From NCBI GenBank assembly GCA_965198235.1, contig OZ240248.1, positions 3,424,001 to 3,488,000 of the forward strand: a stretch of 64,000 bases of DNA, read 5' to 3'. The DNA comes from Candidatus Poribacteria bacterium (GTDB taxonomy: Bacteria > Poribacteria > WGA-4E > WGA-3G). The notes beneath the pieces were generated by a model. The model was not told the DNA's origin. It saw nothing but the letters and a program-made list of their open reading frames with translations, and did not search any database. Shown here piece after piece: positions 1,861 to 22,813 of this stretch (its first letter is position 1; each line of letters begins with the position of its first letter). A program made the position numbers and the translations under genes.

Positions 1861-2100
1861 AATCCGCGCAATCTGCGTCATCCGCGTCATCCGCGATTCA
1901 GACGGAAACTTTAATAATCCTGAAAAGATCGAAGAGGTTTCCTGTCCCCTGATAAGGGGGAGTGAGGGGGTTATCCTGATTCAGACAACTTCCAATTTCT
2001 ATGCTTCACAACTTTTAATCACCGACGGAAACCGACCGCTGACCGCAACCTACACCTACTAACAACTCTCACTGTGAGGCAAATCGATAACTGACAACTA
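1861..2100. repeat. Cluster of short repeat-family remnants (ATCCGCGTC x3, ATCCTGATTCAGAC ends, CTGAC heptamers)
   Basis: Related motifs recur at 4370-4390, 18817-18911, 20369-20478 and 14707-14795. Confidence 0.55.
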
Positions 2101-4331: not shown

Positions 4332-4570
4332 CTACAATGTCCAAGTCGCTGTGGACTTTACTGTAGTCCCGTAAACCCCGATTCTGACAACTGATTGCGG
4401 AAAAACTGATTGCCTCTGATAAAAGTCTTGGCATAATTTCAAAAAATATAGTATTATGTTTAATTAAGTTTTTCATAAACCTTTAATTTACGGAAAATGC
4501 CAACTTAGGTGAACGAATTTTATACGCTACTTAATATAAACACAAGCCATAGCAAGGAGGGAAAATTAGC

Positions 4571-16925: not shown

Positions 16926-17073
16926 TACTATTTTTTCAGAGCGCGTTTTGTCGGATCGGGTGTTTTACTTCCTCGCATCCATTACACGCAAAGCACCCCT
17001 TCTGGACCCTACACTACACAGGTATTCTAACATTTTTGACACTTTTTGTTAAGAAAAAGGAGGGCGGTCTACT

Positions 17074-17118
17074 GAAGGTTTCCGAAGGTTTCCGAAAGTT
17101 TCCGAAGGTTTCCGAAAG
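17074..17118. repeat. Tandem 10-mer GAA(G/A)GTTTCC x4.5
   Basis: Directly visible just upstream of the CRTAC1 gene. Confidence 0.85.
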
Positions 17119-17128
17119 CCAATATCAC

Positions 17129-18802
17129 GTGCATTCCATCATTATAACACTTGTAATCTTTATCCTAACGTCCACGGCTATAGAGGCAGTTACCTTTACT
17201 GATGTCACAAGGGAAGCCGGCATCCGTTTTCAGCATTCAAGCGGAACCCGTTCCAGCCTACTCCCAGAAGACATGGGTTCCGGGGCAGGCTTTGCCGATA
17301 TAGACAACGACGGAGACATCGACCTCTATATTGTTAATATCCCCGGTCCCTTTACACAAGATGGAAATATTGTCCCGCAAGCCTCTATAGGCTTGCGAAA
17401 GGGAAACGCCAATGTCCTCTATCGTAACAACGGGGATGGTACATTTACGGACATCACGCGTGCCGCAGGTGTTGGGCATCAAGGATACGGCATGGGGTGC
17501 GTCTTCGCAGATTATGACGGTGATGCCGACCTCGACCTTTATCTAACCAACTATGGTGAGAATGTTCTCTATCGTAACAACGGGAACGCCACCTTTACCA
17601 ATGTCACAGAAGTTGCCGGTGTCGATTGCGAATTGTGGAGCACAGGTGCCGCCTTCGCAGATGTAGACGGCGACACCGATTTGGACCTCTACGTTTGCAA
17701 CTATGTCACCTACGATTTAGAACAATTGGAACAGATGAAGGAAGAGTCCCTACAATCTGGAAAACCCGTGCCGAGTGCCCTGAATCCGCATGTCTTTGAA
17801 CCACAAGATAACGTCTTCTATCGTAACAACGGGGATGGCACTTTTACCGATGCAACCGATGAAACGGGAATCGCGGCAGTAGGGGGTAGAAGCATGCAAG
17901 CCCTCTTTAGCGACTTTGATAACGATAACGATCTGGATCTCTATGTCGCAAATGATACCTCCACGAACCATATCTATCGCAACGATGGCGGTGGAAGATT
18001 TACTGATGTCAGCACTGAGTCGTGGGCGGCAGATTTTCGCGGTTCTATGGGGCTCACCGCTGGCGATTACGACGCTGATGGTGATATCGATCTCTTTATG
18101 AGCCACTGGGTGGACGAAGAAAACGCCCTCTATAGAAATTTGCTTGAAGAGGATGGCGCAACTGAACAGATCAGGTTCGTAGATGAATCCTATACTGCCA
18201 TGCTTGCTGAAGAGAGCATCAAACAGATCGGATGGGGCACGACCCTCTTTGACTATGACAACGATGGTGATTTGGATATCTTTGTGACGAACGGCAGCAC
18301 CTTCCAGGAGCTTAGACGACCAGAGGTGCTTATCCCCCAGGCTGATATGTTGTTCCGAAACAATGGAGATGAGACATTCACCGATGTTAGTGAAAGTGCT
18401 GGAATTGCAGCACTCCCTATCCGAGTCGGTCGCGGTGCGACATTCGGGGACTATGACAACGATGGTGATGTCGATATTTTCATTGTCAATAACCATGCCC
18501 CACCGACATTGTTGCGTAATGAGGGCGGAAACCGCAGCAATTGGCTGCAGGTCAAACTCGTTGGAACGGACGCGAATCGAGATGCCATCGGCGCGAAAAT
18601 TCAAGTAAAAACGGCAGATCAGACGCAGATACGAGAAATTTACGCAGGTGATAGTTACATGTCTTTTAACAGTCTCATCGCAGAATTTGGCGTAGGGAAC
18701 GCCACACAGATTGAGACGCTACAGGTTACTTGGCAGAACGGCGAAACGCAGAAGCTTCATAATGTCCCAGCAAACCAGCGAATCCGTATAACGCGAGAAT
18801 AG
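17129..18802 (+). CDS. CRTAC1-family protein (FG-GAP/VCBS repeats + ASPIC/UnbV), secreted
   Basis: Repeated DxDxDGDxDL and LYRNNGDGTFTD; NRDAIGA UnbV tail; hydrophobic N-terminus; start uncertain. Confidence 0.9.
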   Translation: MHSIIITLVIFILTSTAIEAVTFTDVTREAGIRFQHSSGTRSSLLPEDMGSGAGFADIDNDGDIDLYIVNIPGPFTQDGNIVPQASIGLRKGNANVLYRNNGDGTFTDITRAAGVGHQGYGMGCVFADYDGDADLDLYLTNYGENVLYRNNGNATFTNVTEVAGVDCELWSTGAAFADVDGDTDLDLYVCNYVTYDLEQLEQMKEESLQSGKPVPSALNPHVFEPQDNVFYRNNGDGTFTDATDETGIAAVGGRSMQALFSDFDNDNDLDLYVANDTSTNHIYRNDGGGRFTDVSTESWAADFRGSMGLTAGDYDADGDIDLFMSHWVDEENALYRNLLEEDGATEQIRFVDESYTAMLAEESIKQIGWGTTLFDYDNDGDLDIFVTNGSTFQELRRPEVLIPQADMLFRNNGDETFTDVSESAGIAALPIRVGRGATFGDYDNDGDVDIFIVNNHAPPTLLRNEGGNRSNWLQVKLVGTDANRDAIGAKIQVKTADQTQIREIYAGDSYMSFNSLIAEFGVGNATQIETLQVTWQNGETQKLHNVPANQRIRITRE

Positions 18803-18825
18803 CGATCAGCAAAGAGGTCTGAACT

Positions 18826-20298
18826 ATGATTGATGAGATTATCAGATGTGCCATGATTAGAGATCCGGTAATCATAGCAAATCTTAAAATCATAAAAATC
18901 CCGGTTCTGACTGCTTCCATAGTCTTAATCCTGCTCTCATGCGGTGGAGATCCCACCATCGAACGCGGCAAGGCGTTTCTGGCAACAGGCGACACTACGG
19001 CTGCCATTCAGCAGTTTCAGGCGGCACTTAAGCAGAATCCTTCCAATGCTGAGGCTTACTATCAGCTCGGTTTGGTGTATGAAGGATTCGTAGATGCTAC
19101 GCAAGCGATCGATGCCTTCAGAAATGCTGCAAGGTTGGCACCGAAACGTGCAGAGATAACACTCGCACTCGGGCGTGTCTATTGGCACAGCGGTAACCGT
19201 TCCCTTGCGCTCACCGAGTTTCAAAATCTGCTGAGCGGTTCCCCAAAAAAGGAAATTCTCCTTCAGTTAGCAGGCCTTACGGGGGATGCTTATCACGTCC
19301 GACGTATTCGCACCGAAGGCAGCGACGACTACGAGCAGACTTTCACTGAAAAAGGGAATATGATGACGTTTACTGCAAAGTATACTGACGATTATAGTCC
19401 CGCAATTTCACCCGATGGAAAATGGCTTGCCTTCGCCTCAAATCGTCTCCAGAACGCTGAGTTGTATCTCATGGATATCGCAACTCGCACCCTACAGCAG
19501 CTCACGCATACCGATGAACTCGACGAATACATGCCTGCTTTTTCACCCGATGGCACGTCTATCGCCTTCGTTTCAGAGCGCACCCGTGGGGGTATGATGC
19601 TCCCGCCTGTCCAAGCGAGTGGTTCTGACCCGAAGACTGCGACTATCTATCTCATGGATATCGACGGGAGAAACCAACGTCCGTTAATCGATATAGAGGG
19701 CGCGCAACGCGCCCCTGTCTTTTCGCCTGACGGGCAAAAAATCGCCTTTGAATCCAAAGTCCCTATGCAGAAAACCGAGAGCGGTATGGGCGAGGTTACC
19801 TCGCCCCTACAGAATAACGCCACATTAGAAATCTACGTCATTCATATTGATGGCACAAACAAGAGGCAACTGACACATAACGATGTAGACGACGGGCATC
19901 CAACGTGGGCACCCAATGGAAAGCAGATCGCCTTCACCGGAATGGTCGATGACATCTACCAAATTTTCAGCGTCAATGCAGGAGGAGGCACGGTAAAGCA
20001 GCTAACGTTTGCGGGTACAGGTTCCCACTACCATCCGACCTTCAGTCCGGATGGCAAACGGATTATCTATGTCTCGAACGCGCACAACCATTATACACTC
20101 TGGATGATGGATGCCAACGGCACAAACAAGACCCAACTCACGAACCACATCGGTGCACATTTTGAACCTAGCCTCTCAAGCGACGGAAAAACGCTTGTAT
20201 TTAGTTCTGACCGTTCGGATCACATGCGAATCTATCTCATGGATATGACAAAACCCCTCCAAAAAGCAGAATTGAAAGCAAGGCTGGCACGGGAATAG
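18826..20298 (+). CDS. TPR + TolB-like PD40 repeat lipoprotein
   Basis: LLSC lipobox, TPR repeats, multiple PxFSPDGKxIAF repeats. Confidence 0.88.
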   Translation: MIDEIIRCAMIRDPVIIANLKIIKIPVLTASIVLILLSCGGDPTIERGKAFLATGDTTAAIQQFQAALKQNPSNAEAYYQLGLVYEGFVDATQAIDAFRNAARLAPKRAEITLALGRVYWHSGNRSLALTEFQNLLSGSPKKEILLQLAGLTGDAYHVRRIRTEGSDDYEQTFTEKGNMMTFTAKYTDDYSPAISPDGKWLAFASNRLQNAELYLMDIATRTLQQLTHTDELDEYMPAFSPDGTSIAFVSERTRGGMMLPPVQASGSDPKTATIYLMDIDGRNQRPLIDIEGAQRAPVFSPDGQKIAFESKVPMQKTESGMGEVTSPLQNNATLEIYVIHIDGTNKRQLTHNDVDDGHPTWAPNGKQIAFTGMVDDIYQIFSVNAGGGTVKQLTFAGTGSHYHPTFSPDGKRIIYVSNAHNHYTLWMMDANGTNKTQLTNHIGAHFEPSLSSDGKTLVFSSDRSDHMRIYLMDMTKPLQKAELKARLARE

Positions 20299-20377
20299 AG
20301 GTCTACAAAAGACTGATGAGATTATCAGATGTGCCATGATTATCGGAGGGCCCATCATCAAGGAAAAAGTCTGAACT

Positions 20378-22813
20378 ATGATTTATCAGATTATCAGATT
20401 TACCATGATTGGGTGTGCTTGTAATCATGGTAAATCACATAAATCACAAAAATCTCGGTCAAAAATCCCGGTTCTGACTGCTTTCATCTTCCTCATTTTC
20501 CTCATTGGTATCGGTTGCAATACAGATGCACCCCGTAGGAGGAATTTGCAATCCCGAATTCCTTCTCCGCGATTCACGGCACATTATCAAAAAGGGGTGG
20601 ACGCGCTGGACATGAATAACTTCGCTGAAGCGGAAAAAGCGTTTCAGGCGTGTCTGCAGATTGATGCCAACGCCCACGATGCACGCATGTTGCTCGCACG
20701 CACCTATATCCGAGAGCAGAAATTTACTCGTGCCGAAGAGACGTTGCAAACACTAATAGAATTGGTTAAACAGGTCCCCGAAGAGAAAGATAAACTCTCA
20801 AGAGCCTACCTAACGTTAGCACAGGTTTTCAGTTATCAACAACGCTTTTCTGATTCTACCACTGCGCTCACCAATGCTTTGGAGGTAAACCCTGACGATA
20901 CCGAGGCACGCATTAGACTCGGCTATTTCTTAGGCGCGCCGCAACAGATGCTCGTCCCGGACCTCTCTGCATCCAAACGGCAGTTTGAAAAGGTACTGGA
21001 ACTCGAACCGAATAATCTTGAGGCGATGCTCCAACTCGGTTTAGCCGAATTCCGACTCGGTGAAGCCGACAAAGCCGCTGAACGGTTTAAAAGTATTATC
21101 CAAAATTACCGTCGTCATTCGGGGGCGTACTATTATCTCGGCGTTTATCATCTCCGACACGGCGCGCCTGAAAAAGCCGTCGAAAATTTCAAAGAATCGC
21201 TCCGTCTCAAACCTCGCGACCCCGAAACCTTGTGGAACTTGTGGACGGCTTATGCAAAACTCGGTGGCTATCCAGAGGAAGTGCCAGCGGAATTTAAAAT
21301 CCAGCCGTGGGAGGGGTTTGTAACCCCGAATTCTGTAGGGCAGGATTCTCTATTTATTGATGTGGCATCTGACTTAAAAATGGACAAAGTCGATGGCGGG
21401 CGCGGCAGTGCCTGGGGCGACTACGATAATGACGGAGATCTGGACATCGTTGCTGTTGGCACGTATCAACCACACGCGCTTTTCCGTAATAACGGCGATG
21501 GCACCTTTACGAACACCGCAGATCAAGCAGGTATCGCTGATCCGAGAGGCGGTTGGGGGTCACTCTTCGCCGATTACGATAACGATGGTTATTTGGATCT
21601 CTACATCACCCGTGGGGGTTGGTCTGGCGCAGCGGAGAACACGCTCTATCATAACAACGGTGATGGCACATTCACCGATGTCACACACACTGCAGGTGTC
21701 GCAGATCCACAGAGCAGTTTCTGTGCCGCGTGGGCGGATTATGACAGCGATGGCCACCTCGATCTCTACATTGCGGACGGAGTTATCGGCGATGGTGCGG
21801 CGAATGTCTTATATCATAACAATGGCGATGGCACTTTCACGAATACAGCGGCGGCAGCCGGTGTCGCGGATACTGGCAACTCTCTCGGAACCGCTTGGGG
21901 TGATTACGATAAGGACGGGTATATCGACTTGCATGTCGTCAATTACGGACAGTCCAATGTGCTTTACCGCAACAACGGCGATGGCACTTTTACAGACGTC
22001 ACCCTGTCAACTGGCATGAATCTCCCCGTTACGGATGCTTTTGTCACCTTCTTTTTAGATGTAGACAACGATGCAGATCTGGACATCTTCATCTCAAACT
22101 CAGGCTCTTTTCAAGCCTTCATCGCCGGTCAAATCACAGGTAGTGCCCCACACGACGGCGATCGGCAGGTACTTTATCGGAATAATGGCGACGGCACTTT
22201 TACGGATGTCACCCGTGAATCGGGACTCTACCACGCTTTCGGCGCGATGGGGGCGAACTTCGGAGACATCAATAGCGACGGTTACCTCGACATCTATCTC
22301 GCCACCGGGGCACCACAGATGGGACGACTCGAACGCGACGCACTCTTCCGCAACAATGGCGATGGCACTTTTACCGATGCGACGGCTGCTCTGGGTTTAG
22401 GGAACATCGGGAAAGGACACGGCGTAACCTTCGGTGATGTCGATACGGATGGTGATGTTGATATCTATGTCCCTGTCGGCGGAGCGTTTATCGGCGACCA
22501 GTGGCACAATCTTTTCTACCGCAACGGTGGAACTGGAAACAACTATCTCACCCTAAAACTGGTCGGGGTCAAAAGTAATCGAGACGGCATCGGTGCCAAA
22601 GTAACCTTGCACATGGGGGATAACATAATTTACCGAGAGGTCAGCGGTGGATGTGGGTTTGGATCGACCAACAGTCTATCGCTTGAAATCGGGCTTGGGA
22701 CACACGCAAAAGTCGATACACTTGAGATCATCTGGCCCTCTGGTCAGGTGGATACGCATCGAAACCTGTCTGTCAATCAGAAACTTGTTGTTACTGAAGG
22801 AGAAGGTCTATGA
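20378..22813 (+). CDS. TPR + CRTAC1-family (FG-GAP, ASPIC/UnbV) probable lipoprotein
   Basis: Hydrophobic stretch ending GIGC, TPRs, DYDNDGxLD repeats, SNRDGIGA. Confidence 0.88.
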   Translation: MIYQIIRFTMIGCACNHGKSHKSQKSRSKIPVLTAFIFLIFLIGIGCNTDAPRRRNLQSRIPSPRFTAHYQKGVDALDMNNFAEAEKAFQACLQIDANAHDARMLLARTYIREQKFTRAEETLQTLIELVKQVPEEKDKLSRAYLTLAQVFSYQQRFSDSTTALTNALEVNPDDTEARIRLGYFLGAPQQMLVPDLSASKRQFEKVLELEPNNLEAMLQLGLAEFRLGEADKAAERFKSIIQNYRRHSGAYYYLGVYHLRHGAPEKAVENFKESLRLKPRDPETLWNLWTAYAKLGGYPEEVPAEFKIQPWEGFVTPNSVGQDSLFIDVASDLKMDKVDGGRGSAWGDYDNDGDLDIVAVGTYQPHALFRNNGDGTFTNTADQAGIADPRGGWGSLFADYDNDGYLDLYITRGGWSGAAENTLYHNNGDGTFTDVTHTAGVADPQSSFCAAWADYDSDGHLDLYIADGVIGDGAANVLYHNNGDGTFTNTAAAAGVADTGNSLGTAWGDYDKDGYIDLHVVNYGQSNVLYRNNGDGTFTDVTLSTGMNLPVTDAFVTFFLDVDNDADLDIFISNSGSFQAFIAGQITGSAPHDGDRQVLYRNNGDGTFTDVTRESGLYHAFGAMGANFGDINSDGYLDIYLATGAPQMGRLERDALFRNNGDGTFTDATAALGLGNIGKGHGVTFGDVDTDGDVDIYVPVGGAFIGDQWHNLFYRNGGTGNNYLTLKLVGVKSNRDGIGAKVTLHMGDNIIYREVSGGCGFGSTNSLSLEIGLGTHAKVDTLEIIWPSGQVDTHRNLSVNQKLVVTEGEGL

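Follow-up and report, generated by a model that had tools for sequence, protein, structure and literature searches.

A small palindromic repeat has taken the place of native 5′ ends in two putative lipoprotein genes of Candidatus Poribacteria and probably serves as their start and signal-peptide front

The stretch of DNA analysed here (64,000 nucleotides, hereafter the window) comprises positions 3424001–3488000 of contig C1 (OZ240248.1) of a Candidatus Poribacteria genome (GCA_965198235.1, here G000; 5.17 Mb, 48% G+C). Two neighbouring genes in it, termed gene A and gene B and both predicted to encode lipoproteins, carry at their 5′ ends copies of a small non-coding palindromic repeat of 96–111 bases (hereafter the element), which resembles a MITE (miniature inverted-repeat transposable element) or a repetitive extragenic palindrome (REP). 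As judged from orthologues lacking it, the element almost certainly replaced the native 5′ ends of both genes, and it probably supplies them with a working start codon and with the n-region of the signal peptide. The original prediction, made from the letters of the window, had spoken of repeated exaptation of a mobile palindrome as a translation-start and export module; this interpretation is supported, the repetition being seen in the replaced leaders, in a third gene of the same genome (gene F) and in two more gene families of sister genomes, and translation, export and mobility are treated as conditional throughout.

Copies of the element in the genome were located on contig C1 by BLAST and with an nhmmer profile (coordinates in Table 1). 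The two copies in question had originally been placed at 18817–18911 (95 bp) and 20369–20478 (110 bp); both are real, and each is one base longer than stated. This border was set with contigs from three RNA-library runs that stem from another copy, match exactly 18817–18859 and 18860–18912, and then diverge; the borders of copy B were drawn by analogy. In these runs (X5, X8 and X9), the contigs of that other copy had a different 33-base loop and other flanks, at a contig depth of 10–35 that was above the depth of the locus itself there. The copies form two families of direct repeats, D1 (18805–18858 as reference, 20357–20410 with 83% and 20288–20341 with 69% identity to it) and D3 (18894–18936 and 20461–20503, 81% identical). 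The partial copy announced at about 20298–20345 was recovered as the third member of family D1 and extends over 20299–20367, and it is a remnant of an earlier copy at the gene B site. A 17-base right-end motif is exact at 18895–18911 and 20462–20478 and has a relative with three mismatches at 4372–4388, i.e., three matches in the window vs. 0.20 expected, a number reached by none of 100 shuffles. The left-end 15-mer is exact at 18817 and 20369, its count at three mismatches alone being not above chance.

Terminal inverted repeats of 8 bases (18817–18824 and 18904–18911), which reach about 13 bases in most copies, enclose an inner palindrome. The 15 bases by which copy B exceeds copy A keep the reading frame. 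Of the three frames, only one can be read without a stop through the right half, and it encodes two basic residues followed by hydrophobic ones. Most copies have a purine run at the left, similar to the Shine-Dalgarno-like one upstream of gene A and mirrored at the right end; the terminal inverted repeat probably extends outwards to include this run. The element has several MITE traits, namely terminal inverted repeats, small size, no transposase gene, and several dispersed copies.

That native sequence gave way to the element is seen in the orthologues, whose N-termini had been put forward as a check on the original prediction. Gene A was present in all 24 same-genus genomes of the first draw. 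Over the 61 genomes examined for its leader (including G000), the element stood at the 5′ end in four (G000, G017, G007, G022); in the other 57, which lack the element, the leader is short, an ATG of its own immediately precedes the h-region, and the Cys is the same. For gene B, the element was found in three genomes (G000, G017, G007) out of 62, and 59 had short leaders without it. The gene A junctions are identical in G000 and G017. G007 and G022 have another, more decayed copy in common, in which a different ATG of the element is in frame. In G000, the native intergenic DNA, the ATG, and about nine (gene A) or three (gene B) of the first codons were lost to the element. The upstream stop codon lies 80 bases 5′ of gene B ATG1 (the first in-frame ATG of the element) in G000 and 11 bases 5′ of it in G017 and G007. 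In gene B of three other genomes (G001, G015, G048; loci L017, L029, L289), yet another kind of leader was observed that resembles non-coding DNA upstream of gene B in G002 (L032); the gene B leader there may have incorporated another repeat family as well.

Both copies are read in frame, from the ATG at 18826 and the ATG at 20378, into open reading frames (ORFs) of 490 and 811 aa that continue from the element into the gene, as is likewise the case in gene F. As had been noticed from the translations, KIPVLT directly precedes the hydrophobic region and the Cys in both ORFs; a check of the leaders by eye returned basic residues, then 14–17 uncharged residues, and then Cys. The absence of an ATG between element and h-region, also noted originally, extends to in-frame GTG and TTG and as far as the Cys codon in both genes, all in-frame ATG, GTG, or TTG codons 5′ of each lipobox Cys being located within the element. 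A start downstream of the element, named at the outset as a finding that would speak against the proposal, would hence have to use a non-canonical codon in both genes. Between G000 and G017, which both have the element, dN is 0.115, dS 1.17, and dN/dS 0.098 for the mature part of gene A, a sign of purifying selection. In one RNA library, a single contig of 3940 bases with 32 differences spans 17455–21394 across both elements, consistent with co-transcription. A run labelled sponge metagenome contained the locus at 99% identity.

The same kind of fusion recurs in other genes for exported proteins. In G000, gene F (C1:1326181, 698 aa, with a cleavable signal peptide) has only the right half of the element, which contributes an ATG, two basic residues, and the leading hydrophobic residues; the length of the resulting leader is ordinary. 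Of 30 orthologous loci examined, nine had the element-derived leader, 20 the native one, and one was unclear; native and element-derived forms are mixed within the clade closest to G000, and the gene F locus of G079 has a full element. The junctions differ among genes A, B, and F, which argues for a repeated event. An NHL-repeat lipoprotein gene and its downstream neighbour have native leaders in G000 and element-derived ones in G004, G012, and G068, and a further fusion candidate was found at L104. All affected families encode exported proteins. A loose scan of G000 for further fused genes returned none beyond A, B, and F, an ORF at the intergenic copy C1:3044655–3044754 being rejected as spurious. 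In a database of 5.8 billion proteins, the gene A leader occurred in only five clusters within the length range searched, two of gene A type and three of gene B type, all called from ATG1; one gene A-type cluster is without the second in-frame ATG of the element (ATG2), which favours ATG1 as the start. A second small repeat (L049:1577–1693, about 117 bases, with own inverted ends and TA flanks) was observed nested in the element copy that forms the 5′ end of the NHL-repeat lipoprotein gene in G004, where the frame stays open, and a similar sequence lies upstream of gene F in L091.

The explanation that we regard as likely, as a whole, is that a palindromic element serves as the replaced start and signal-peptide front of these genes. 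The element would bring the purine-rich, Shine-Dalgarno-like run 8 bases before an ATG, two in-frame ATGs, and a right arm with a single open frame. Genes A and B would be transcribed as one row with the upstream gene. Ribosomes that terminate on the preceding ORF, at a distance from ATG1 of 24 bases for gene A and 80 bases for gene B, would open the hairpin of the element and re-initiate at ATG1 or ATG2, the obstacle of the hairpin being overcome in this way. In the lipoprotein signal peptide, the element-encoded residues would make up an extended n-region and the beginning of the h-region; the remaining h-region and the lipobox Cys would be native and would serve Sec export and processing by Lgt/LspA. 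Insertions would persist only in genes for exported proteins because an N-terminal piece that is first basic and then hydrophobic would be tolerated only there. Start-codon choice, export, translational coupling, and the mechanism of mobility are inferred here.

Several observations weigh against this explanation. The predicted hairpin of copy A pairs the purine run as well as ATG1 and ATG2, which should hinder initiation. The Cys would be residue 39 or 30 of the gene A product and residue 47 or 38 of the gene B product, depending on the ATG, and a Cys at residue 30–47 is long for lipoprotein signal peptides. Native starts in the orthologues are not preceded by a Shine-Dalgarno run, so that the role of the purine run of the element is uncertain. 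The RNA data consist of contigs that carry no 5′ ends, strand, or level, and carry-over of DNA is possible; ribosomal start inside the element, protein export, and lipidation are each steps of inference. As DNA was replaced, the event must have been more than a plain insertion. A possible path would lead over an older copy further upstream and a small deletion that then joined this copy to the gene: many element-free orthologues of gene B (L014, L016, L019, L026, L028) are preceded by two promoter-like hexamers spaced 17 bases apart and by a 5′ leader of some 75 bases, and this leader holds a relic of the end motif of the family 16 bases 5′ of the native ATG. Finally, with no target-site duplication, transposase, or Y1 partner recovered (see below), mobility has to be read from the distribution of copies.

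Some of these points would fit a reading in which the element is a 5′ untranslated leader only, with translation starting at a non-canonical codon further downstream or with the alleles no longer exported and drifting to loss. Sequestration of both ATGs and of the Shine-Dalgarno-like run in the hairpin, the unusual length of the leaders, and the presence of rare in-frame ATA, ATC, and CTG codons 3′ of the element are in line with it. A start past the element, however, leaves fewer than ten residues before the Cys and hence no signal peptide, and a signal peptide is retained in every orthologue examined. In all fused alleles, the frame that begins at the element ATGs is open, through the 15 extra bases of copy B, a one-residue indel (P0005), and the nested insert of about 117 bases (L049); several species have intact ORFs of 490 and 811 codons, with the low dN/dS given above, and the leader that gene F draws from the right half has an ordinary length. 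Taken together, an untranslated leader is considered unlikely.

More improbable still is that the element is kept mainly for regulation, as an mRNA-stability hairpin or for coupled translation, with its coding use as a by-product. REP and Correia-type elements act as regulators of mRNA stability or translation, and copies here stand right after stop codons in operon-like rows. A stable hairpin was predicted as well: for copy A it is long and interrupted, with −35.4 kcal/mol (z −1.86, matched by 13 of 200 shuffles), and the region of copy B reaches −61.5 kcal/mol (z −2.08). The gene A element is, moreover, far less diverged than adjacent synonymous sites, with 5 of 96 bases differing between G000 and G017 (95% identity) vs. 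13 of 97 in the immediate flanks (p 0.042). Against this stands the consensus hairpin of 16 copies, in which only 2 of 27 predicted pairs were changed on both sides (covariation term +0.98); the palindrome is conserved as sequence, and covariation support for a selected fold is weak. Scans for promoter and terminator consensus sequences returned nothing inside either element, and the three sigma-70-like hits in the region equal the shuffles (mean 2.9). No Rfam family was assigned, the search at a permissive threshold returning only sub-threshold hairpin matches to microRNA models (22–26 bits vs. a gathering threshold of 90). Even a regulatory element would leave the need for a start codon, which the element alone offers.

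The low divergence of the gene A element also bears on how the alleles have moved. Genes around it are 72–81% identical between G000 and G017. G000 is otherwise 85–92% identical to clade mates without the element, and G079, the closest relative of G000 examined, has the native gene A leader. As the element is so little diverged and close kin are free of it, the allele must have passed from one lineage to another within a short tract or else have arisen a second time at that site. The gene B site of G000 has seen turnover, an older truncated copy (20299–20367) being followed by a full copy of another subfamily, and a near-identical gene B in the database (P0004) still has the older copy type.

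About nine places in G000 match the element in total, the full copies outside the window being intergenic. One intergenic copy begins 3 bases 3′ of a stop codon; another separates two ORFs that form an acetolactate-synthase-like pair. Genus-wide, BLAST matches were obtained in 45 of 65 genomes (1 to 14 per genome, 9 in G000), the usual setting being short intergenic gaps just 3′ of stop codons; most copies are intergenic and have no connection with signal peptides. The related intergenic ends that had been reported from the window at 1890–1990 and 4370–4390 are real (Table 1) and belong to a wider family, whose 13-base end motif occurs 42 times in G000 vs. about one expected by simple arithmetic. 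For this wider family, one genome per species was scanned with a degenerate right-end pattern of 25 bases (19 of them fixed), which yielded at least 119 stretches. Record titles among the matches listed include Bacteroidota (Chitinophaga, Spirosoma, Saprospiraceae, Ferruginibacter), Ignavibacteria, Chloroflexota, Planctomycetaceae, Desulfobacteraceae, Patescibacteria, a cyanobacterium, and Candidatus Poribacteria, five loci with the last title corresponding to the same places as in this genus. An inverted left end, which was no part of the query, lay within 250 bases in 38 of the 122 matches listed, the resulting units measuring 73–257 bases. Four such genomes (G081–G084) had 55 to about 300 ends each vs. 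0–1 for the reversed control. Within this family, which is widespread among bacteria, the element is a member of low copy number. Outside the genus, no clear leader fusion was seen among the at least 119 loci, several elements ending 0–15 bases before a native start.

Duplication of a gene segment that has no intergenic copies, which the original prediction had named as a finding that would refute it, is ruled out by the intergenic copies in G000, the matches across the genus, and those in other phyla; that the shared leader is nonetheless a gene segment copied by duplication or gene conversion, the intergenic copies being decayed leaders rather than a mobile element, is very improbable, for although the conserved gene A element amid strongly diverged genes and synonymous sites points to conversion or short-tract transfer and copy B of G000 replaced an older copy at its site, all full copies have terminal inverted repeats and an overall palindrome, most lie outside genes, and elements built alike are present in Bacteroidota, Ignavibacteria, Chloroflexota, Planctomycetota, and others, with up to about 300 ends per genome vs. 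0–1 in the control.

What moves the element was sought in a few genomes, and two candidates were rejected. For an autonomous parent insertion sequence (IS), no end pair with IS-like spacing was found in G000, and three pairs of 2.9–4.3 kb in G081 enclose ordinary genes; there was no transposase between end pairs in the genomes searched and no long shared unit, similarity stopping 60–70 bases beyond the end. For a link to RAYT/Y1 transposases, the six Y1_Tnp (IS200-like) genes of G000 (141–171 aa; C1:119838, 606918, 1898775, 3853757, 4381488, 4792784) were inspected: only the one at C1:606918 has end motifs of the family nearby, all on one side, so that none is flanked by the element, and G081, the richest in copies of the genomes searched (roughly 300 ends), gave no Y1_Tnp match. 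In the flanks compared, no direct repeat indicative of a target-site duplication was present, the palindrome merely running on for a few bases.

A bolder version of the preferred explanation, which we hold only tentatively and consider rather doubtful as a whole, is that the right arm of an undescribed cross-phylum family of mobile palindromes is pre-adapted as a portable signal-peptide start, has repeatedly overwritten the leaders of at least five exported families in this sponge-associated genus, and gave alleles that spread by short-tract recombination and were tuned from Gln to Leu. At one position of the right inverted repeat, a Leu codon is present in five of seven fused families, whereas 15 unfused places have 11 Gln, one stop, and three Leu (one-sided Fisher test, p 0.032, with related copies not independent); the excess of Leu in fused copies fits selection for a hydrophobic residue and also speaks for the preferred explanation itself. 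If this version were true, such elements would preferentially find a safe harbour in signal-peptide N-termini and would be recruited there.

The locus is a row of three plus-strand genes arranged head to tail, namely a gene at 17036–18802 followed by gene A and gene B. The stop codon of the first lies 14 bases 5′ of element copy A and 24 bases 5′ of ATG1 of gene A. Genes A and B are neighbours in most genomes and are separated by about 27 kb in G006 and about 4 kb in G014, so that the junction holding the element is also a point of rearrangement. Intergenic DNA 3′ of stop codons was observed genus-wide to be rich in short, tandem, heptamer-like units, often followed by a purine-rich run, e.g., at 2020–2100 of the window, upstream of gene A (L004, L008, L011), and upstream of C1:1326181. 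Apart from this, an ORF on a small second contig (start at G000:C2:1747) was identical to G000:C1:777345 over the 103 residues compared, which may reflect duplication, a plasmid-borne copy, or redundancy of the assembly.

Table 1. Coordinates of the locus, of the element, and of related motifs. Positions are those of the window unless preceded by C1 (whole contig).
Feature	Position	Strand	Remark
Upstream gene, same operon-like row	17036–18802	+	FG-GAP_3 and UnbV_ASPIC domains
Gene A	18826–20298	+	490 aa, TPR and PD40 (TolB-like beta-propeller), putative lipoprotein
Gene B	20378–22813	+	811 aa, TPR, FG-GAP_3, and UnbV_ASPIC, putative lipoprotein
Element copy A	18817–18912	+	96 bases
Element copy B	20369–20479	+	111 bases
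Partial element copy	20299–20367	+	left two thirds, another subfamily; begins directly 3′ of gene A stop codon
Purine-rich, Shine-Dalgarno-like run	18812–18817	+	ends 8 bases 5′ of ATG1 of gene A
ATG1 of gene A, within element	18826–18828	+	taken as start by the gene callers behind each of the 5 database clusters
ATG2 of gene A, in frame, within element	18853–18855	+	would make Cys residue 30
Lipobox Cys codon, gene A	18940–18942	+	aligned with Cys of every orthologue examined
ATG1 of gene B, within element	20378–20380	+	
ATG2 of gene B, in frame, within element	20405–20407	+	
Lipobox Cys codon, gene B	20516–20518	+	aligned with Cys of orthologues examined
Intergenic end motif, wider family	1895–1903	+	
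Intergenic 13-base end motif, wider family	1974–1986	+	one of 42 in genome
Intergenic diverged end motif	4372–4388	+	3 mismatches to element right end
Full copy	C1:3097576–3097681	−	intergenic
Full copy	C1:3044655–3044754	+	intergenic
Full copy	C1:4751514–4751619	−	intergenic
Copy without right end	C1:2062189–2062292	−	
Left end alone	C1 ~4859880		intergenic
Right half alone	C1 ~1326194		

Fusions of repeats and ORFs have been known mostly as annotation curiosities without a before/after comparison. The occurrence of the same genes, for several unrelated exported proteins and over dozens of sister genomes, with native and with element-derived leaders amounts to a natural experiment on the tolerance of the n-region and on the origin of starts and leaders, and it indicates a route by which a selfish repeat may persist inside coding DNA. 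For annotation, repeat DNA may underlie calls of starts and signal peptides where uncultured symbionts have genomes rich in repeats. The conservation of the ends in many phyla, with no transposase found, raises the question of the mover. No paper on the element or its family was found in the text literature, figures and supplements of which are not searchable, and the family may bear a name there.

Among known systems, the Neisseria REP2 repeats, described as dispersed repeats of 120–150 bases with internal stem-loops (Delihas 2011, PMC3184786, which also covers IR-A/IR-B of Borrelia plasmids), are similar in that a purine run (18812–18817) precedes the ATG at 18826 and reading frames continue out of the element into genes A, B, and F. 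According to the passages on it in that paper, REP2 has a promoter and lacks terminal inverted repeats, whereas the element has inverted repeats and no promoter-like site by consensus scan; the same passages give no account of a replaced native signal-peptide start, which is seen here directly in orthologues and with only exported proteins affected. Rickettsia palindromic elements (RPE; about 100–150 bases, located in frame inside genes, and encoding a conserved peptide; PMC10969869, citing Ogata et al. 2000) share with the element that a palindromic repeat is read in frame in coding genes. As summarised in the relevant part of that source, however, RPEs form internal segments in ORFs of many cytoplasmic proteins, whereas here the N-terminus, start codon, and signal peptides only are concerned. 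MITEAba12 of Acinetobacter is a MITE of 113 bases whose outward end can make the start codon and the first four residues of an adjoining coding sequence (PMC6382973). Its parent IS (ISAba12) and target duplications are known, neither of which was found for the element, and its fusions figure in the part of the paper concerned as possible cases from three records, with no evidence given there that native leaders were replaced or that the fusions are conserved between species. REP and REPIN sequences are described in parts of PMC3116915 and PMC3184786 as intergenic palindromic doublets of about 100 bases with long hairpins that are mobilised by RAYT Y1 transposases; like the element, they often lie 3′ of stop codons in operons and have no coding capacity of their own. 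REPs are lineage-specific, whereas the end motif here is common to several phyla. In the REPIN/RAYT system, moreover, a single-copy Y1 (RAYT) gene is flanked by inverted copies of the repeat and accompanies it wherever it occurs, in contrast to the Y1 genes of G000 and to end-rich G081, where none was matched. Repeats that supply a start, palindromes read in frame, and a MITE that can give the first four residues are already known. What appears to be new is the before/after evidence over dozens of genomes, the restriction to signal peptides in at least five exported families, the replacement rather than extension of native leaders, and the membership in a cross-phylum family.

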